Below, piece by piece: positions 1 through 6,762 of a stretch of DNA of 18,599 bases. The position numbers and the translations under genes are program-made. How positions within the stretch are numbered: the stretch's first letter is position 1; every line of letters starts with the position of its first letter. The notes beneath the pieces were generated by a model. It was not told the origin of the DNA and ran no database searches. It saw only the letters and a list, made by a program, of their open reading frames with translations. Origin of the DNA: a virus (Duplodnaviria; Heunggongvirae; Uroviricota; Caudoviricetes); IMG/VR virus record IMGVR_UViG_2547132252_000005, positions 1 through 18,599 of that record; one strand, 5' to 3'.

Positions 1-154
1 TTGGCGACGATCACAATGCGATGAACTGCGCATCGCTGGCATCACCTTTAAATGCCGTCTGGCGAAGAGTGGTGATCAGTTCCTGTGGGTCGACAGAATC
101 CATGCCGACACGTTCAGCCAGCTTCCCTGCCAGCGTTGCGAGTGCTGTACTCAT
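1..154 (-). pseudogene. bet: bet (Red-beta single-strand annealing protein), 5' end; frame closes after codon 47 and the gene runs off the window
   Basis: Minus-strand ATG at 152-154 translates MSTALATLAGKLAERVGMDSVDPQELITTLRQTAFKGDASDAQFIAL then TGA at 11-13. This matches my recollection of the lambda Bet N-terminus, which continues ...FIALLIVANQYG; the -1 frame here reads IVAN, consistent with a 1-bp deletion. Below the 60-aa ORF-track threshold. Confidence 0.6.
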
Positions 155-159
155 CCGTT

Positions 160-456
160 TTATACCTCTGAATCAATATCAACCTGGTGGTGAGCAATGG
201 TTTCAACCATGTACCGGATGTGTTCTGCCATGCGCTCCTGAAACTCAACATCGTCATCAAACGCACGGGTAATGGCTTTTTTGCTGGCCCCGTGGCGTTG
301 CAAATGATCGATGCAGAGTGATTCAAACAGGTGCTGTGGAAGACCTTTTTCCATGTCGTCTGCCAGTTCTGCCTCTTTCTCTTCACGGGCAATCTGCTGG
401 TAATGACGCGCCCAGCTCTGAGCCTCAAGACGATCCTGAATGTAATAAGCGTTCAT
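160..456 (-). CDS. gam: Gam (RecBCD inhibitor), short GamS-length form
   Basis: The 98-aa [24 protein letters not shown]...HQVDIDSEV is near-identical to the lambda Gam short form as I recall it. Its stop lies 5 bp before the bet start, as in lambda. Confidence 0.9.
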
Positions 457-531
457 GGCTGAACTCCTGAAAATGGCTGTGAATATATCGCCCGCGAAAT
501 GCCGGGCTGATTAGGTAAACAGGAAAGGGGA

Positions 532-942
532 TTAGTGATTCAGGCCGTTGCCGCGTCCGTCGAGAAAAACTTCCACGAGCAAATCACGGGTATAAGTGCG
601 CTCGATGCCGCGATGCAGATAAAGCCGTCCGCGTAAATTAGCTGATGCAGTCCAGGTACCATCTTTGTGTTTGACCAGCATTCCTGGCATGACCGCACCG
701 CGATTAACGGTCTGCGTTCCGTAATGTTGATGAACCATAAAAACTCCTGCCCGTAAGCTGGGCTGCTGAACATATAGAGACTTCTGCGCGTATTCAGGCG
801 GTGGATGGCCGCCGGTTGTCATAACTAAGCCGCCTCGTTGAAGCGACTGAGGTATGAGGTGTTGAGTTGATTTCAGCTGGTCACACCGACGTTCACGCGT
901 CCGCTTCACCCCTCGCACTTCCCGGAGCCTGCTGAAATTCAA
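532..942 (-). CDS. Hypothetical protein immediately downstream of the OL/pL-like region; Arg-rich N-terminus ([15 protein letters not shown]) loosely resembling an N-type ARM; start codon uncertain
   Basis: 136-aa ORF with a TTG start in the track, same frame as gam. An internal ATG with an upstream GGAG would give a 68-aa product. An overlapping 77-aa ORF (540..773) in another frame cannot be excluded as the real gene. Confidence 0.3.
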
Positions 943-959
943 GCTGCGGATCTAAGCGG

Positions 960-1100
960 TCATCGCAACGGTGAATCAGGTGGTTGCCGTATCGTTGTGT
1001 TGTTGCGATGAATTTATTTAAAACTATAGTTGTTTTGTCGTCAACAACAAAAGTTGTTTTATTGGTTTTTTTAGATGTAAATGGTTGTATTTAGGATGGA
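960..1100 (-). promoter_or_regulatory. Candidate OL/pL operator-promoter region
   Basis: Cluster of GGTTGTT / AACAAC half-sites, including AGTTGTT-n8-AACAACA at about 1028..1049, with the same architecture as the OR palindrome at 3447..3471. The position matches lambda OL, between the rex-equivalent cassette and the leftward early genes. Confidence 0.45.
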
Positions 1101-1184
1101 TTTATTTTGTGACTTGCATCGCATAGCGATAACTGAAGCGAGGTCGTGGTGGTTTTTTGAATGGTTTGTGTGATGAGGGGGAGG

Positions 1185-1214
1185 GGCAAAAGAAAACCCG
1201 GCACGGTGGCCGGG
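1185..1214 (-). terminator. Intrinsic terminator ending the cI-cassette transcript
   Basis: Stem CCCGGC (1197-1202) / GCCGGG (1209-1214) with loop ACGGTG. On the minus strand it is followed by TTTTCTTTT (plus 1188-1196), directly after the stop of the 125-aa gene. Confidence 0.55.
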
Positions 1215-1218
1215 ATTC

Positions 1219-1596
1219 TTACGCAGGTAGGTAAAGATATGATTGTGGTGGCTTAATATTACTACCTAGAGCAGAGATAGGAATTGGTTCTTTATATCTT
1301 TCCACTTCACCAATTTTTATTGCGTAGGCCTTTTCTCTACCTGAATAATATGAGTCATAAAATTGCTTAGAAATACCTGCGTGTTTTTCCGTCTTTTTCC
1401 AAAGAGATTCCGGTTCGTCACTTAGTATTGATTCAATACGGAATTGACCAACAACTTTACCTAATGGCATCGTGGCATAAATAACAACGGTGCTAATTTG
1501 CGGATTTTTGAATATACCTTTACGAAACTCGAACCGCTTTGTTCCGTTCAATATTTTTTCTGCAAACTCAGGCTTAATGGATAATAAAACTTTCAT
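1219..1596 (-). CDS. ASCH-domain (PUA-like fold) protein, 125 aa; distal gene of the cI-linked cassette
   Basis: N-terminus MKVLLSIKPEFAEKILNGTKRFEFRK carries the ASCH hallmark (G-x-K-x-x-E-x-R after the first strand). A TEKHA motif resembles E. coli YqfB as I recall it. Its start overlaps the upstream gene by 23 nt; the region is AT-rich. Confidence 0.7.
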   Translation of the reverse strand: MKVLLSIKPEFAEKILNGTKRFEFRKGIFKNPQISTVVIYATMPLGKVVGQFRIESILSDEPESLWKKTEKHAGISKQFYDSYYSGREKAYAIKIGEVERYKEPIPISALGSNIKPPQSYLYLPA

Positions 1597-2647
1597 TTAT
1601 CTTGCCTAACTCGATGATCTTTAAGAACTGCTCATTTGTGAGTTTAAAGTGACTCCATCGGAATGCACGCGAACCATTTAGCCCCACATGATCTATTAAA
1701 ATAGCACGATTGGGTCTCTTTGGCAAAGACAGATTGTATGTGAATCTTATAATGAAAGGGTATCGACGTTCTTTATAGATTTTTCTGAGTTCATCTTCAG
1801 AAAATACGCTAAAACGAATACAATAGTCTACAAAACTATCTTCGCTTAAAAATTCAGAAATATTTTTTACGCTCTCAACTACACATAATGTACTGGCTAC
1901 AGAACGATAGCGAGCTGGCCCTTTTTTGTCTCCGGTTCTATAGATGACAATGATATCTCCTCTTTTCATTCCCATCACAGAACGCATTCCACATATGTAA
2001 ATTTTATGAATGCTGTTAGCATGGGATATATCTTTGACAATATCTGGTGATTCATTTACAAGTTTTGAATCAGGGAATAGTCTAGTGTGATATTCGGGAT
2101 AAATCGCCAGTAAATATTTGTTGGCTCTTGATGTCATTATTCGAGGGTAATCTAATAAAATATCACCATAAGGCTCATGCAAAGACCTCGCATATACAAA
2201 CTCTTTCCCGTTATGTGTTTCTTTTTCACCATGAATGTAAAATCCGTACGTTTGGAAAAGTTTTATTAGATGGACGTGTTTGTCGAAAACAGTAACATAA
2301 ATATCATCAGATTTTGATGAAAATGCATGGTCAAACGCTTTTTTTAGAAATCGTTGTCCGCGAAGGGTGCCTTTAGATTCAAATTTGAATGTTCCTATCT
2401 TTAGATGACGTCCTGGTGGGAGCGCTGGATTAATGTCATTTGCATCATCATTTTCTTTTAGATACATAAAACCTTCGATTTTATGCTTGTCATCATAGAG
2501 CACATAAGCTGATTCTCCTTCTCTGGCTTTTTTTTCTAACCAAAGAGGAAACTCTTTATAATCTTTTTTTAAAGAGTCAAAAAATGGGTCATTGTGATCA
2601 AAATCAGAGAATTTCTCATATTTTAAAGTATCCATTAAGTTCTCCAT
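1574..2647 (-). CDS. 357-aa protein with a GNAT-like N-terminal region (about residues 30-150) and a C-terminal domain of unknown function; proximal gene of the cI-linked cassette
   Basis: Long uninterrupted AT-rich ORF 68 bp downstream of the cI stop on the same strand. GNAT-like pattern: LKIGTFKF, then RGQRF (motif-A-like), then LIKLFQTYGFY. The C-terminal half (IYICGMRSVMGMKRGDIIVIYRTGD...) matches nothing I can name. Fold calls are from reading the sequence, not a profile search. Confidence 0.7.
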   Translation of the reverse strand: MENLMDTLKYEKFSDFDHNDPFFDSLKKDYKEFPLWLEKKAREGESAYVLYDDKHKIEGFMYLKENDDANDINPALPPGRHLKIGTFKFESKGTLRGQRFLKKAFDHAFSSKSDDIYVTVFDKHVHLIKLFQTYGFYIHGEKETHNGKEFVYARSLHEPYGDILLDYPRIMTSRANKYLLAIYPEYHTRLFPDSKLVNESPDIVKDISHANSIHKIYICGMRSVMGMKRGDIIVIYRTGDKKGPARYRSVASTLCVVESVKNISEFLSEDSFVDYCIRFSVFSEDELRKIYKERRYPFIIRFTYNLSLPKRPNRAILIDHVGLNGSRAFRWSHFKLTNEQFLKIIELGKINESFIIH

Positions 2648-2715
2648 TCTAAAATGAATAATTAAGTTGTTTTACTGAATGAGCACAATGCCCGGTTGAT
2701 AATTTTTAATTGGTA

Positions 2716-3405
2716 CTATCCATGCTTCCTATACGTCTGCGGCATGCTCCCAATAACTTTCCCGAAGATAAACACCCGGTTCATCTCGTCTTTCTCGATT
2801 GGGTCCCACGGTGAGTAGCTCTTGTTATCAGAGATAACCAGCAGTTTATCCTTCATCATTTGCAGGCGCTTTACATGGGCTGTGTCGTCGTACAGAAACG
2901 CATAGATACCATCACCGTCGAAAGATTTAACCGTGATATCAACGAACAGCAGATCACCAGGTTCAATCGTTCCTGACATGCTGTCACCGCGTACGTTAAT
3001 GATGCGGATATTTTCTGCCTTCCTGCCATCGAACATGTGACGAGCATCGTCAAACGAGTACTCAACCGAGCGTAGGACTTCTACAAACTCACGGTTGATG
3101 ACACCCGGCCCGGCACTCACTTCTATATCAAGAACGTCAATCTTAAAGTATTTGGAATGGCTGACAGTTGGTTGTATTGGTTGCACTGTACTGTCTGACA
3201 TATTTCCAACGCCAGAAGATAACCATTCTGCGCGCACACCCAAAGCGTTCGCGATCTCCACGATTTTAGTTGTTTGATTAGCTTTCCCTGTTTCGATTTT
3301 CTGAATAGCAGCTTGGCTAACCCCGACCAAATCCCCAAGCGCCTTTTGTGTAAGGCCTCGCGCTAATCTGGCTTCTTTAAGTCTTTCTGAGAGTGTTGTT
3401 TTCAT
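2716..3405 (-). CDS. cI: CI-type prophage repressor (N-terminal HTH, C-terminal LexA/S24 autopeptidase domain)
   Basis: 229 aa. N-terminal HTH (LTQKALGDLVGVSQAAIQKIETGK), a GDSM serine motif and a downstream KRL lysine typical of S24 self-cleaving repressors. Divergent from a cro-like gene across an operator region. Confidence 0.88.
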   Translation of the reverse strand: MKTTLSERLKEARLARGLTQKALGDLVGVSQAAIQKIETGKANQTTKIVEIANALGVRAEWLSSGVGNMSDSTVQPIQPTVSHSKYFKIDVLDIEVSAGPGVINREFVEVLRSVEYSFDDARHMFDGRKAENIRIINVRGDSMSGTIEPGDLLFVDITVKSFDGDGIYAFLYDDTAHVKRLQMMKDKLLVISDNKSYSPWDPIEKDEMNRVFIFGKVIGSMPQTYRKHG

Positions 3406-3509
3406 AGTTCAAATGTACAACCAAGGTTTTATTCCATCAAACGAAAATGGTTGTTGACTAAAAACAACCATAGTTTTAATCTTGATTCAAATTAACCACG
3501 GAGGTTGTT
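3406..3509. promoter_or_regulatory. OR region with divergent pRM/pR promoters and operator palindromes
   Basis: Near-perfect 25-bp palindrome ATGGTTGTTgactaaaAACAACCAT (3447..3471) enclosing TTGACT (3454-3459), with a TAATCT -10 candidate near 3477-3482. Further half-sites ACAACCA (about 3416-3422) and GGTTGTT (3503-3509). GGAGG sits 5 nt before the cro ATG; no SD before cI, suggesting a leaderless cI mRNA as in lambda. Confidence 0.6.
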
Positions 3510-3740
3510 ATGAACCCAGCTATTAAAACAGCGATCAATATCGTTGGTTCACAAAAGAAACTGGGCGCTGCTTGCGAAGTTTCACAGCAGGCCGTCTATA
3601 AGTGGCTTCACAACAAAGCAAAGGTATCCCCTGAACATGTCGGCAGCATTGTTACGGCTACTGGTGGAGTAGTGAAGGCACACCAGATTCGCCCGGATCT
3701 TCCGAAGTTGTTTCCACACACCGAAAAGAACGCAGCTTAA
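3510..3740 (+). CDS. cro: Cro-like HTH regulator (YdaS-like)
   Basis: 76 aa, first rightward gene at OR, with an HTH (KKLGAACEVSQQAVYKWLH) and a good RBS. Confidence 0.8.
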   Translation: MNPAIKTAINIVGSQKKLGAACEVSQQAVYKWLHNKAKVSPEHVGSIVTATGGVVKAHQIRPDLPKLFPHTEKNAA

Positions 3741-3809
3741 ATTTCCATTTCACGCTCTTTAACAATAAGCAATCAACTTAACAGTCAATTCAAACTAAAG
3801 GAGTCAATT

Positions 3810-4349
3810 ATGCAACCACTTACATACCAACAGACTAGCGGATTTAGCCCGACTGCGGTGATAAATCGTTCTCAAACAAAACAGGTGCCAGGCCACGAAA
3901 AAATCCGTGATGCCGTCCGCGCCTGGTCGGCTGAAGATAATCAGGATGTCGTTGCCACACTCATTGTGAATGAGTATCGGGAGCAGGGCGGCGGCACCAT
4001 CGATTTCCCTGATGATGTCAGCCGTGCACGCCAGAAGCTGTTCCGCTTCCTCGATAACAAATTCGATTCTGAAAAATACCGAAATAACGTGCGTGAACTG
4101 ACCCCGGCAATTCTGGCGGTACTACCGCTGGAATATCGCGGTTACCTGGTTGAGCAGGATAGCTTTATGGCTAGGTTGGCTGAAATGGAAAAGGAACTCA
4201 GTGAGGCAAAACAGGCTGTCATTCTCAACGCACCACGCCACCAGAAACTGAAGGAAATTAGTGAAGGTATTGTGTCGATGTTTCGTGTGGACCCAGATCT
4301 GGCTGGTCCACTGATGGCGATGGTCACCACCATGCTGGGGGCAATATGA
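3810..4349 (+). CDS. YdaT-family protein (CII-like regulator of Rac-type immunity regions)
   Basis: 179 aa. Motifs NEYREQGGGTIDFPDD and LTPAILAVLPLEYR parallel E. coli YdaT (EEYLRQGGGELPLVPG ... LIPAILAILPRELR) as I recall it. Sits in the cII position after cro. Confidence 0.7.
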   Translation: MQPLTYQQTSGFSPTAVINRSQTKQVPGHEKIRDAVRAWSAEDNQDVVATLIVNEYREQGGGTIDFPDDVSRARQKLFRFLDNKFDSEKYRNNVRELTPAILAVLPLEYRGYLVEQDSFMARLAEMEKELSEAKQAVILNAPRHQKLKEISEGIVSMFRVDPDLAGPLMAMVTTMLGAI

Positions 4350-5365
4350 CAGGTTCAGAAATGGCGAAAGCCGGTCTGCTGGAACAGAACCGACTTTCAG
4401 GTGCAAATCGTAACGCACTCATTGCGGGAGGAATTATGGCAAACACTGCTGAGATATTCAATTTTCCAGTGCCGGATGTGGCACAAAAGGAGCCGCGCGT
4501 GGCAGATCTCGATGATGGTTATACGCGCATTGCAAATGAGTTGCTGGAAGCTGTGATGCTGGCCGGATTAACACAGCACCAGCTTCTGGTCTTCCTGGCT
4601 GTCATGCGCAAAACATATGGCTTTAATAAAAAACTGGATTGGGTGAGCAACGAGCAACTTTCCGAATTGACCGGGATATTGCCGCACAAGTGTTCTGCTG
4701 CAAAAAGCGTTCTGGTAAAGCGTGGGATTCTTATTCAGAGCGGGCGGAATACCGGCATTAATAATGTGGTCAGTGAATGGTCAACATTACCCGAATCAGG
4801 TAAGAAAAATAAAGTTTACCTGAAAGAGGTAAATTTACCTGAATCAGGTAAAAAAAGTTTACCCAAATCAGGTAAAGACGTTTACCCGAATCAGGTAAAC
4901 ACAAAAGACAAAATAACAAAAGACAATATAAAACCTTATTCGTCCGAGAATTCTGGCGAATCCTCTGACCAGCCAGAAAACGACCTTCCTGTGGTGAAAC
5001 CGGATGCTGCGATTCAGAGCGGCAGCAAGTGGGGGACAGCAGAAGACCTGACCGCCGCAGAGTGGATGTTTGACATGGTGAAGACCATCGCGCCATCAGC
5101 CAGAAAACCGAATTTTGCAGGGTGGGCTAACGATATCCGCCTGATGCGTGAACGTGACGGACGTAACCACCGCGACATGTGCGTGCTGTTCCGCTGGGCA
5201 TGCCAGGACAACTTCTGGTCCGGTAACGTGCTAAGTCCGGCCAAACTCCGTGACAAGTGGACCCAACTCGAAATCAACCGTAACAAGCAACAGGCTGGAG
5301 TGACAGCCGGAAAATCAAAACTGGACCTGACAAACACTGACTGGATTTATGGGGTGGATTTATGA
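4346..5365 (+). CDS. O: Replication initiator O (lambdoid O-family); start codon ambiguous (4346, 4361 or the MANTAEIF Met)
   Basis: The N-terminal region (YTRIANELLEAVMLAGLTQHQLLVFLAVMRKTYGFNKK) resembles the lambda O DNA-binding domain. The gene contains the iteron array and is followed by a lambda-P homolog. Its ATG overlaps the upstream stop (ATATGA). Confidence 0.8.
   Translation: MTGSEMAKAGLLEQNRLSGANRNALIAGGIMANTAEIFNFPVPDVAQKEPRVADLDDGYTRIANELLEAVMLAGLTQHQLLVFLAVMRKTYGFNKKLDWVSNEQLSELTGILPHKCSAAKSVLVKRGILIQSGRNTGINNVVSEWSTLPESGKKNKVYLKEVNLPESGKKSLPKSGKDVYPNQVNTKDKITKDNIKPYSSENSGESSDQPENDLPVVKPDAAIQSGSKWGTAEDLTAAEWMFDMVKTIAPSARKPNFAGWANDIRLMRERDGRNHRDMCVLFRWACQDNFWSGNVLSPAKLRDKWTQLEINRNKQQAGVTAGKSKLDLTNTDWIYGVDL
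4787..4898. repeat. Replication origin: five direct 17-bp iterons (TTACCYRAATCAGGTAA type) inside O
   Basis: Iterons at about 4787, 4816, 4835, 4859 and 4882, each with internal dyad symmetry (TTACC...GGTAA), followed by an A+T-rich stretch (4899..4935). The layout is that of lambda ori within O. Confidence 0.75.
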
Positions 5366-6063
5366 AAAACATCGCCGCACAAATGGTTAACTTTGACTGT
5401 GAGCAGATGCGCCGGATCGCCAACAACATGCCGGAACAGTACGACGAAAAGCCACAGGTACAGCAGGTAGCGCAGATCATCAACGGTGTGTTCAGGCAGT
5501 TACTGGCAACTTTCCCGGCGAGCCTGGCTAACCGTGACCAGAATGAACTGAACGAAATCCGCCGCCAGTGGGTTCTGGCTTTCCGGGAAAACGGGATCAC
5601 CACAATGGAACAGGTTAACGCAGGAATGCGCGTAGCCCGTCGGCAGAATCGACCATTCCTGCCATCACCCGGGCAGTTTGTGGCCTGGTGCCGGGAAGAA
5701 GCATCCGTTAACGCCGGGCTGCCAAACGTCAGCGAGCTGGTTGATATGGTTTACGAGTATTGCCGGAAGCGTGGCCTGTATCCGGATGCAGAGTCTTATC
5801 CGTGGAAATCGAACGCGCATTACTGGTTGGTTACCAACTTGTACCAGAACATGCGGGCCAATGCGCTGACTGACGCGGAATTACGGCGCAAGGCTGCCGA
5901 TGAACTGACCTGTATGACAGCGCGAATTAACCGTGGTGAGACGATACCTGAACCAGTAAAACAACTTCCTGTTATGGGCGGTAGACCTCTAAATCGTGCA
6001 CAGGCTCTGGCGAAGATCGCAGAAATTAAAGCTAAGTTCGGACTGAAAGGAGCAAGTGTATGA
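5362..6063 (+). CDS. P: Replication protein P (DnaB helicase loader)
   Basis: 233 aa, essentially collinear with lambda P as I recall it (MKNIAAQMVNFD...AKFGLKGASV). Start overlaps the O stop. Confidence 0.92.
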   Translation: MKNIAAQMVNFDCEQMRRIANNMPEQYDEKPQVQQVAQIINGVFRQLLATFPASLANRDQNELNEIRRQWVLAFRENGITTMEQVNAGMRVARRQNRPFLPSPGQFVAWCREEASVNAGLPNVSELVDMVYEYCRKRGLYPDAESYPWKSNAHYWLVTNLYQNMRANALTDAELRRKAADELTCMTARINRGETIPEPVKQLPVMGGRPLNRAQALAKIAEIKAKFGLKGASV

Positions 6064-6362
6064 CGGGCAAAGAGGCAATTATTCATTACCTGGGGACGCA
6101 TAAGAGCTTCTGTGCACAGGACGTTGCCGCGGTAACAGGCGCAACCGTAACCAGCATAAATCAGGCTGCGGCTAAAATGGCGCGGGCAGGAATCCTGGTC
6201 GTTGATGGTAAGGTCTGGCGAACGGTGTATTACCGGTTCGCTACCAGAGAAGAACGGGAAGGAAAGGTGAGCACGAATCTGATTTTTAAGGAGTGTCGCC
6301 AGAGTGCCGCGATGAAACGGGTATTGAGGGTATATAAAAGAACATCAATGGGTACACAATGA
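6060..6362 (+). CDS. ren: Ren protein
   Basis: 100 aa; MTGKEAIIHYLGTH...VWRTVYYRFATREEREGK matches lambda Ren from memory. Overlaps the P stop. Confidence 0.88.
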   Translation: MTGKEAIIHYLGTHKSFCAQDVAAVTGATVTSINQAAAKMARAGILVVDGKVWRTVYYRFATREEREGKVSTNLIFKECRQSAAMKRVLRVYKRTSMGTQ

Positions 6363-6429
6363 TGAAACAGGTGAGTTGAGTTCAAACTGTAGTACAATTC
6401 TCTCCAGTTTGAACAGGAAAGAATATTCT

Positions 6430-6762
6430 ATGAACCCTTATATTTATCTTGGTGGTGCAATACTTGCAGAGGTCATTGGTACAACCTTAATGAAGTTTTC
6501 AGAAGGTTTTACACGGTTATGGCCATCTGTTGGTACAATTATTTGTTATTGTGCATCATTCTGGTTATTAGCTCAGACGCTGGCTTATATTCCTACAGGG
6601 ATTGCTTATGCTATCTGGTCAGGAGTCGGTATTGTCCTGATTAGCTTACTGTCATGGGGACTTTTCGGCCAACGGCTGGACCTGCCAGCCATTATAGGCA
6701 TGATGTTGATTTGTGCCGGTGTGTTGGTTATTAATTTATTGTCACGAAGCACACCACATTAA
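6430..6762 (+). CDS. emrE: EmrE small multidrug resistance (SMR) efflux transporter, 110 aa
   Basis: MNPYIYLGGAILAEVIGTTLMKFSEGF...LSRSTPH is near-identical to E. coli EmrE as I recall it. AGGAAAG RBS before the ATG at 6430. The track's 6376 start is an upstream in-frame extension. Confidence 0.92.
   Translation: MNPYIYLGGAILAEVIGTTLMKFSEGFTRLWPSVGTIICYCASFWLLAQTLAYIPTGIAYAIWSGVGIVLISLLSWGLFGQRLDLPAIIGMMLICAGVLVINLLSRSTPH

Follow-up and report, generated by a model that had tools for sequence, protein, structure and literature searches.

Operons of the (PIN-)GNAT-EVE type almost always encode an ASCH protein as well, as Bell et al. 2020 (BMC Biol, PMC7641849) report from the work of Iyer et al. 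2013 (NAR). The form without the PIN domain is common in prophages of beta- and gammaproteobacteria, and in related operons ASCH domains are found fused to HsdS and to HTH domains. A toxin-antitoxin function was predicted for these modules, none of which had been characterised, and the ASCH protein was thought possibly to bind modified DNA or to regulate expression (all from Bell et al. 2020, PMC7641849). Here we describe a copy of this module, the gene pair gevT-gevA, in an 18,599-nucleotide stretch of DNA from a tailed virus (IMG/VR record IMGVR_UViG_2547132252_000005, positions 1 to 18,599; hereafter the window), with the ASCH gene gevA at 1219-1596. We favour a reading of the pair as toxin and antidote, in which GevT would be a harmful acyl writer on nucleic acid that is kept in check by GevA, and we give this reading as a whole a probability of roughly 0.55.

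Both proteins are matched by PADLOC profiles (PDC-M11A against GevT, E 2.1e-133; PDC-M11B against GevA, E 6.8e-52), and their genes are adjacent and overlapping. By these matches we assign gevT-gevA to the PADLOC phage-defence candidate PDC-M11, the GNAT-EVE + ASCH operon. Such operons contain the same two proteins in the same order and nothing structural differs; the present copy has neither the PIN domain, which is optional, nor an AAA_17 gene. The names GevT and GevA follow GenBank record PV340567.1 (Escherichia phage PhiR47_2), in which the genes are labelled 'GevT toxin' and 'GevA antitoxin', in the manner of a database label only. This phage has the same cI-gevT-gevA-kil order, and its cassette with the flanking sequence is 99.9% identical in nucleotides throughout. 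Phages with PhiR names are cited to Brenes and Laub 2025 (Cell Host Microbe 33:1004).

A literature search found no paper using the Gev names and one strain survey that mentions PDC-M11; neither the DefensePredictor paper nor a 2026 domain-centric paper on defence mentions ASCH or GNAT. The domain call and the pairing of the genes are already known from RefSeq, Iyer et al. 2013, Bell et al. 2020, PADLOC and one phage record, and the chemistry of the module is unpublished as far as the literature that we reached. The initial annotation of the window had supposed a toxin-antitoxin-like logic for the pair, which agrees with the prediction in Bell et al. 2020 (PMC7641849) and with the GenBank label.

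The ASCH protein GevA and its relatives

The features of GevA are listed below by position in the window; ZmASCH and YqfB are ASCH proteins of solved structure, and the count of 76 refers to the homologues described in the text.

1219..1596, minus strand: gevA-type gene for a stand-alone 125-residue ASCH protein (PADLOC PDC-M11B), called from Pfam ASCH, PDC-M11B and ZmASCH matches
1522..1545, minus strand: ASCH octapeptide GxKxxExR, read directly from the sequence as G18-T-K20-R-F-E23-F-R25 (GKER type)
1477..1479, minus strand: Tyr40, counterpart of ZmASCH Tyr47 by alignment, invariant in 76/76
1378..1392, minus strand: TEKHA pentapeptide (GevA residues 69-73), identical to YqfB 67-71 and not a family motif
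1240..1248, minus strand: P117-Q118-S119 motif, counterpart of ZmASCH P126-Q127-S128, invariant in 76/76

The gene is a 125-codon open reading frame (ORF) on the minus strand that runs from ATG to stop, and its protein begins with MKVLLSIKPEFAEKILNGTKRFEFRK. An ASCH signature had been noticed at this N-terminus from the DNA, and it was borne out by a profile search as well as by the octapeptide. Pfam PF04266 matches GevA at E 2.5e-8 and 35 bits, where the curated gathering cutoff is 21.2, and the match spans residues 5-97 and profile positions 1-101 of 103, which is near the full length. Precomputed PF04266 matches are present in most GevA homologues, and RefSeq names the identical protein 'ASCH domain-containing protein'. 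With a match above the cutoff and an intact octapeptide, GevA is by homology a member of the ASCH superfamily.

The family was examined in 76 same-strand homologues from many phyla, which are about 43-77% identical in the sampled alignment. Seventeen residues are invariant in all of them (S6, I7, P9, I15, K20, E23, R25, Y40, P44, W66, G74, Y83, A92, P117, Q118, S119 and Y122), from which we conclude that the ORF is a real gene and not a product of chance. Within the octapeptide K20, E23 and R25 are thus kept in 76/76 and G18 in 74/76. The invariant residues of the predicted pocket and cleft, namely K20, E23, R25, Y40, W66 and the PQS motif at 117-119, form a pattern that would be expected of a catalytic or ligand-binding protein and not of a mere protein plug.

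When GevA was compared with all PDB sequences using phmmer, the only significant matches were the four ZmASCH entries (5GUQ, 5GUS and the Y47F and S128A mutants), each with an E-value of about 1e-15. ZmASCH (ZMO0922 of Zymomonas mobilis) is 34% identical to GevA across 120 residues, and by homology to its crystal structures (E 1e-15) GevA is predicted to have a PUA-like beta-barrel fold. Judged by sequence, ZmASCH and not YqfB is the closest solved or characterised relative of GevA. The two proteins have in common the GKER octapeptide, Tyr47 of ZmASCH (Y40 in GevA) and the P-Q-Ser128 motif (its serine being S119 in GevA), whereas Lys53 of ZmASCH, which is an ASCH 'family 2' protein, aligns with Gly46 of GevA, adjacent to Lys47.

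The first description of ZmASCH was of a weak Mg-dependent ribonuclease that acts specifically on single-stranded RNA; Tyr47, Lys53 and Ser128 line its basic cleft. It binds both single-stranded DNA and single-stranded RNA, its S128A mutant binds nucleic acid less well, and Q127 touches phosphates in the authors' simulated RNA complex. More recently an un-reviewed preprint (2026) reported that 19 ASCH proteins, ZmASCH included and all those tested being active, remove N4-acetylcytidine (ac4C) from tRNA. In the same preprint the octapeptide Lys and Glu were essential in the Glu-containing (GKER) class, being needed in TthASCH, EOLA1 and TRIP4. Furthermore, the whole length of GevA is matched by the C-terminal 'unknown domain' of a family of fusion proteins with 50S ribosomal protein L22 (NCBIfam NF008917, E 2.8e-15), a hint that the substrate of this ASCH subfamily is linked to the ribosome or to RNA.

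The initial annotation had also likened the TEKHA pentapeptide of GevA to the region of the catalytic Glu in E. coli YqfB, an ac4C amidohydrolase. The pentapeptide is indeed identical, lying at residues 67-71 of the YqfB sequence (PDB 1TE7) and at 69-73 of GevA, and a 5-mer common to the two proteins arose by chance in 0.6% of 200,000 shuffles, so that the identity is real and unusual. Its suggested functional meaning did not hold. The catalytic residues of YqfB are Lys21, Thr24, which activates the nucleophile, and Glu74, together with Arg26 (a GKTR octapeptide); Glu74 lies outside TEKHA, within which only His70 matters, by about tenfold. Nor is the motif conserved in the GevA family: E70 is replaced by K in 44 of the 76 homologues, by S in 11 and by R in 6, K71 varies, position 72 holds F, H or Y, and the only conserved positions around it are T69 (75/76) and A/S73-G74. 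Three residues past TEKHA, in the register of YqfB Glu74, the family has S, T or K and no conserved Glu, and the position of YqfB Thr24 is occupied by Glu23 in GevA, which is therefore without the YqfB-type catalytic set. By its octapeptide class, the acidic residue that matters in GevA is E23 and not a Glu near TEKHA.

The search for kinship with YqfB, as the initial annotation had proposed it, came out negative: phmmer with GevA as query did not find YqfB even at E<=10, and profile-profile alignment of the GevA family with YqfB (hhalign) aligned the octapeptide region only, over 25 columns and with a probability of 0.6%. We rejected a kinship through TEKHA as a functional motif, since the family does not conserve it and YqfB T24 and E74 have no counterparts. 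What YqfB (PDB 1TE7, 9KYF) and GevA share is membership of the ASCH superfamily, a small single-domain build and TEKHA at a similar position. They differ in the octapeptide, GKTR in YqfB and GKER in GevA, and have no significant sequence similarity. YqfB acts on free nucleosides, and we know of no partner gene for it.

The GNAT-PUA partner and its linkage to gevA

The features of the partner gene and its junction with gevA are as follows.

1574..2635, minus strand: gevT-type gene for a 353-residue GNAT + PUA-like fusion (PADLOC PDC-M11A, E 2.1e-133; AlphaFold2 pLDDT 86.5)
2171..2635, minus strand: predicted GNAT acyltransferase domain of GevT (about residues 1-155), from Foldseek and PHROG 13728
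1577..2128, minus strand: predicted PUA-like (ASCH/EVE-type) domain of GevT (about residues 170-353), from a separate domain model (pLDDT 79.5) and Foldseek
1574..1596, minus strand: 23-nucleotide overlap of the gevT end and the gevA start (putative translational coupling), from the ORF coordinates

An alternative upstream ATG at 2647 (ORF 1574-2647) would give GevT 357 residues. The start is most likely the second ATG, at 2635, since a GGAG lies 6 nucleotides upstream of it and the homologues and RefSeq use the 353-residue form. A Pfam scan of the gevT ORF (1574-2647) gave no match. Modelled with AlphaFold from 37 sequences (pLDDT 86.5), GevT shows two domains. A Foldseek search of the PDB with the whole model gave the N-terminal one a GNAT fold, with 8OSP and PaiA (1TIQ) at E-values of about 6e-7 and TM scores (target) of 0.65-0.70. 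The acyltransferase-like nature that the initial annotation had ascribed to this neighbour is upheld by the GNAT fold of the predicted structure, and PHROG 13728, 'acetyltransferase', covers residues 8-151 of the 357-residue form, which are residues 4-147 of the 353-residue GevT. The residues R92, G93, R95, Y130, Y232 and R233 are invariant in GevT.

The C-terminal domain was modelled separately, as GNAT matches dominated the fold search with the whole protein. Its best Foldseek match was ZmASCH (E 5e-6, TM 0.67-0.69), followed by the EVE proteins 2AR1, 2P5D, 1ZCE, 2GBS and 2EVE and then by THYN1 and the McrB N-domain (E 4e-5 to 8e-4 from the EVE proteins to the McrB N-domain); EOLA1, TRIP4, YTH domains and YqfB stood further down the list. 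Pfam EVE was matched in 7 of 19 GevT family members and there below threshold only, hence our label of a PUA-like (ASCH/EVE-type) domain. A profile search against PDB sequences gave OCRL as its sole match, which we judged spurious and rejected as a relative of the domain.

Profile-profile comparison (hhalign) aligned this C-domain with the GevA family at E 4.8e-4 over 94 columns, with KYLLAIYPEYH set against KVLLSIKPEFA and IVIYRT against VVIYAT. The C-domain is without the K/E/R octapeptide. The operon thus appears to hold two PUA-like modules that are weakly related: the C-domain of the transferase protein, which lacks the catalytic triad, and a free protein that possesses it, in other words a non-catalytic and a catalytic-looking version of one fold.

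Linkage of the two genes was scanned with one genome per species, which gave 80 loci with GevT relatives that are 45-74% identical. The loci are spread over Gamma-, Beta-, Alpha- and Deltaproteobacteria, Campylobacterota, Bacteroidota, Firmicutes, Acidobacteriota, Verrucomicrobiota and others. A GevA-type gene adjoins the GevT relative in 80/80 of these loci, in keeping with the coupling of an acyltransferase-like and an ASCH protein that had been proposed from the window. In 76 the two genes are on the same strand and overlap, in one the overlapping copy is truncated where the contig stops, and in three, all from Vibrionaceae, the genes are convergent; these last four had at first seemed to be without an ASCH gene until a tblastn re-check. 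The start codon aligned with GevA Met1 lies 23 nucleotides inside gevT in 71 of the 76 same-strand loci and 29 nucleotides inside it in the other five. The convergent ASCH genes were located at 7676-8050 in L018, 7083-7457 in L022 and 9290-9658 in L027 (locus coordinates, all on the minus strand). Co-occurrence of the genes thus outlives the loss of translational coupling in the three Vibrionaceae loci.

The other neighbours are mutually unrelated and include integrases, S24 repressors, SIR2, STAND NTPases, Fic, Mom, holins and housekeeping genes. The only recurrent third neighbour is an AAA_17/18 P-loop gene, found at 9 loci, and a Mom-family protein occurred once among the 70 immediately upstream genes scanned. 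In Vibrio cholerae (L002-L005, 1-11065) the module and an AAA_17/18 gene are situated between a type I-F CRISPR-Cas/SNIPE (T5orf172 nuclease) cluster and a 1270-residue SIR2_2 protein. A umuDC-like pair (Peptidase_S24 + IMS) also lies in between in this defence island. The GevT-GevA pair behaves as an autonomous and mobile two-gene module.

Position in the lambdoid prophage

The window is a lambdoid prophage whose cassette and flanks are 100% identical to many E. coli O157:H7 chromosomes. The cassette is present at nearly full length in 275 of 5426 complete E. coli genomes (~5%) and in 8 phage records. The leftward order is cro-side operators, cI, gevT, gevA and a strong terminator-like hairpin, and then kil, gam and bet, with the following features around the cassette.

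2716..3405, minus strand: cI-type repressor (HTH_3 + Peptidase_S24 by domain matches), directly upstream of gevT
3436..3479, no strand assigned: right-operator-like palindromes between cI and cro, from repeat analysis
1018..1094, no strand assigned: left-operator-like copies of the right-operator-like sequences, forming inverted-repeat pairs I1, I3 (95% complementary), I8 and I10 with 3436-3479
1188..1214, minus strand: intrinsic terminator-like hairpin CCCGGCCACCGTGCCGGG + TTTTCTTTT, 5 nucleotides past the gevA stop codon

Because the operator-like sequences at 3436-3479 recur as inverted copies at 1018-1094, the cassette can be placed within the immunity region, with cI on one side of it and the left operator on the other. 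A crude consensus scan between cI and gevT found no sigma-70-like promoter and no terminator, and we infer, as the simplest reading, that gevT-gevA is co-transcribed with cI in lysogens. The G+C content is 35% for the cassette and 46% for the window. Phage PhiR26_1 has the same cI and kil flanks with a 'putative lipoprotein' in the slot instead, which marks the slot as one for exchangeable cargo.

In lambda, rexAB is found between cI and the left operator. The slot of rexA-rexB is the same as that of gevTA, being downstream of cI, inside the immunity region and with a terminator before the left operator, but the two pairs have no relationship in sequence or fold and their predicted biochemistry differs. 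By analogy with the rexAB slot, gevTA would be expected to have an exclusion function that is expressed in the lysogen.

Several other features of the window were recorded. The gene at 3810-4349 (plus strand), in the cII position, is called 'cII' in the phage record and 'toxin YdaT domain-containing protein' in RefSeq. Between ren and a ninB-like gene (6376-10367, plus strand) there is cargo that is not phage-like, comprising an emrE-like SMR transporter, the serine recombinase ybcK, ybcL (PEBP/Raf-kinase-inhibitor-like) and the AraC-type ybcM, which agrees with the RefSeq annotation of the prophage beside mlrA in O157:H7 strain TW14359. Three phage tRNA genes (12951-13202, plus strand; anticodons CAT, TCG and TCT) follow the Q antiterminator gene (12057-12506). 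Genes for tRNA after Q are the arrangement seen upstream of stx in Shiga-toxin phages; no toxin genes follow the Q-tRNA region in this window. At 13715-15663 (plus strand) a nanS-p-like sialate O-acetylesterase region is spread over three ORFs (DUF1737 at 13715-14389, SASA at 14256-15044 and DUF6645 at 15082-15663) and looks like a gene broken by frameshifts. An IS3-family element (17352-18565, plus strand; orfA 17352-17678, orfB 17675-18565 with rve and HTH_21) begins about 250 nucleotides beyond the lysozyme gene (16563-17096), at a place where more of the lysis cassette would usually be expected.

Proposed function and alternatives

In the toxin and antidote reading, gevTA would be transcribed together with cI from the maintenance promoter. 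GevT would dock on nucleic acid through its PUA-like domain, most likely on RNA of the translation apparatus, and its GNAT domain would move an acyl group from acyl-coenzyme A (acyl-CoA) to the target, with harmful effect if unchecked. GevA, made from the same mRNA by translational coupling, would restrain GevT, and as an enzymatic antidote could hydrolyse the acyl mark through the invariant Lys20/Glu23 pair, as DarG does for DarT. The role would most likely be to shut out superinfecting phages or to stabilise the prophage, as read from genomic context only. Two observations speak for RNA as the target, namely the reported activities of ZmASCH-type proteins and the similarity of GevA to the C-domain of the L22 fusions (NF008917). 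For the eraser step taken by itself, in which GevA would be an amidohydrolase removing an acyl mark through Lys20/Glu23, we put the chances at a little below even. The writer/eraser idea is nevertheless better motivated than before, given the invariance of K20, E23 and R25 and the preprint on removal of tRNA ac4C by GKER-type ASCH proteins; GevA may also be a reader of a modified base instead of an eraser. Only tentatively do we propose the full scheme of a reversible nucleic-acid acylation switch, in which a PUA-guided GNAT would write an N-acyl mark on RNA of the host or of a phage, for instance as ac4C, as some other N-acetylated base or on the amino acid of aminoacyl-tRNA, and a dedicated ASCH amidohydrolase would erase it; lambdoid prophages would use the switch from the cI operon for abortive infection or exclusion.

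This logic has a parallel in DarT-DarG, a toxin-antitoxin and phage-defence system with the toxin gene first, in which a transferase modifies nucleic acid as the toxin and a small hydrolase takes the mark off again as the antidote. The parallel is an analogy of logic only and not one of membership, as the folds and the chemistry (ADP-ribosyl and macrodomain in the one, acyl and ASCH in the other) are unrelated. A second comparison is with the GNAT toxins that acetylate aminoacyl-tRNA, namely TacT, AtaT, ItaT and KacT, which like GevT in our model use a GNAT fold as a toxin against the translation apparatus. In contrast to GevT, toxins of the TacT class lack a PUA-like domain, and each is bound by an antitoxin that is itself a DNA-binding protein; the fold search with GevT gave no preferential match to this class. 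GNAT domains are established toxins, and those that acetylate aminoacyl-tRNA are cited as a class in Bell et al. 2020 (PMC7641849).

A number of points weigh against the reading of toxin and antidote. We found no experiment on the module in the literature reached and no paper behind the toxin and antitoxin labels in GenBank. The putative CoA-binding motif of GevT, R92-G93-x-R95-F-L/I-K-K, in which an invariant R92-G93-x-R95 is followed by K98-K99, is at the expected place but departs from the canonical Q/R-x-x-G-x-G/A. Phe127 presumably occupies the usual position of the general-acid Tyr, by an alignment to RimI. Translational coupling is not obligatory, as gevA is convergent to gevT in the three Vibrionaceae loci. 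The deacetylase activity of ASCH proteins, positive for 19 of 19 in an un-reviewed preprint, may be generic and not the real job of each protein, and the original work on ZmASCH gave it a weak Mg-dependent ribonuclease activity on single-stranded RNA and not that of a deacylase. Finally, the defence role is taken from the neighbourhood alone, and the promoter scan was a crude consensus scan.

GevA might instead neutralise without catalysis, either by binding GevT in the manner of a type II antitoxin or by competing for the nucleic-acid site of the GevT PUA domain, and though we consider this unlikely it is the alternative that survives best. The related folds of GevA and the GevT C-domain (E 4.8e-4) could recognise the same ligand or pair together, the 23-nucleotide overlap would suit co-production, ZmASCH binds single-stranded DNA and RNA, and Bell et al. 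2020 had thought of ASCH as a possible binder of modified DNA or a regulator of expression. A plug, however, has no need for invariant Lys, Glu and Arg residues that are catalytic in other ASCH proteins, GevA has no DNA-binding domain for autoregulation, and the convergent genes at three loci argue against strict co-translation.

The retention of ZmASCH Tyr47 and Ser128 as Y40 and S119, in a protein whose closest solved relative cleaves single-stranded RNA, could also mean that GevA is the effector, a ribonuclease held or switched in abortive infection by the GNAT-PUA protein as sensor or regulator. This we regard as improbable: the ribonuclease activity of ZmASCH is weak and the protein is now reported as a deacetylase, its Lys53 aligns with Gly46 in GevA, and the sole functional label names the GNAT protein as the toxin, in line with the standing of GNAT domains as toxins (Bell et al. 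2020).

Quite improbable in our view is a system of DNA base modification, a proposal attributed to Iyer et al. 2013, in which GevT would acetylate a DNA base for epigenetic or anti-restriction purposes and the ASCH protein would read or edit the mark. Domains of the EVE, SRA and McrB-N types do recognise modified bases in DNA, and THYN1 and the McrB N-domain are among the structures that the GevT C-domain resembles; the ASCH-HsdS and ASCH-HTH fusions of related operons (Bell et al. 2020) and the single Mom-family neighbour among 70 upstream genes fit the same idea. A place in the lysogenic cI operon, and not among the late genes, suits the marking of progeny DNA poorly, ASCH proteins of the ZmASCH type have RNA-directed activities and a relative fused to L22, and nothing here points directly to DNA. 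Lastly, that GevA is a housekeeping amidohydrolase salvaging free ac4C in the way of YqfB, with no relation to its neighbour, is very improbable, as the shared ASCH fold and TEKHA are set against the absence of a significant sequence relationship and of YqfB T24 and E74, the strict linkage to a GNAT-PUA protein in 80/80 loci and the location on mobile elements and in defence islands.

The toxin and antidote reading, with the acylation switch as its chemistry, is directly testable through the invariant residues K20, E23, R25, Y40 and S119 of GevA and R92, G93, R95, Y130, Y232 and R233 of GevT. If it is true, the ac4C-eraser activity of ASCH proteins would be linked to a natural cognate writer, and a first biological role would be at hand for a bacterial ASCH 'eraser' that has a writer of its own as partner. 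The toxin-antitoxin and defence systems with enzymatic antidotes would gain a member based on acylation, an acetyl counterpart of DarT-DarG. The same model would account for a cargo pair that about 5% of complete E. coli genomes, many O157:H7 strains included, carry in the rexAB slot of their prophages.

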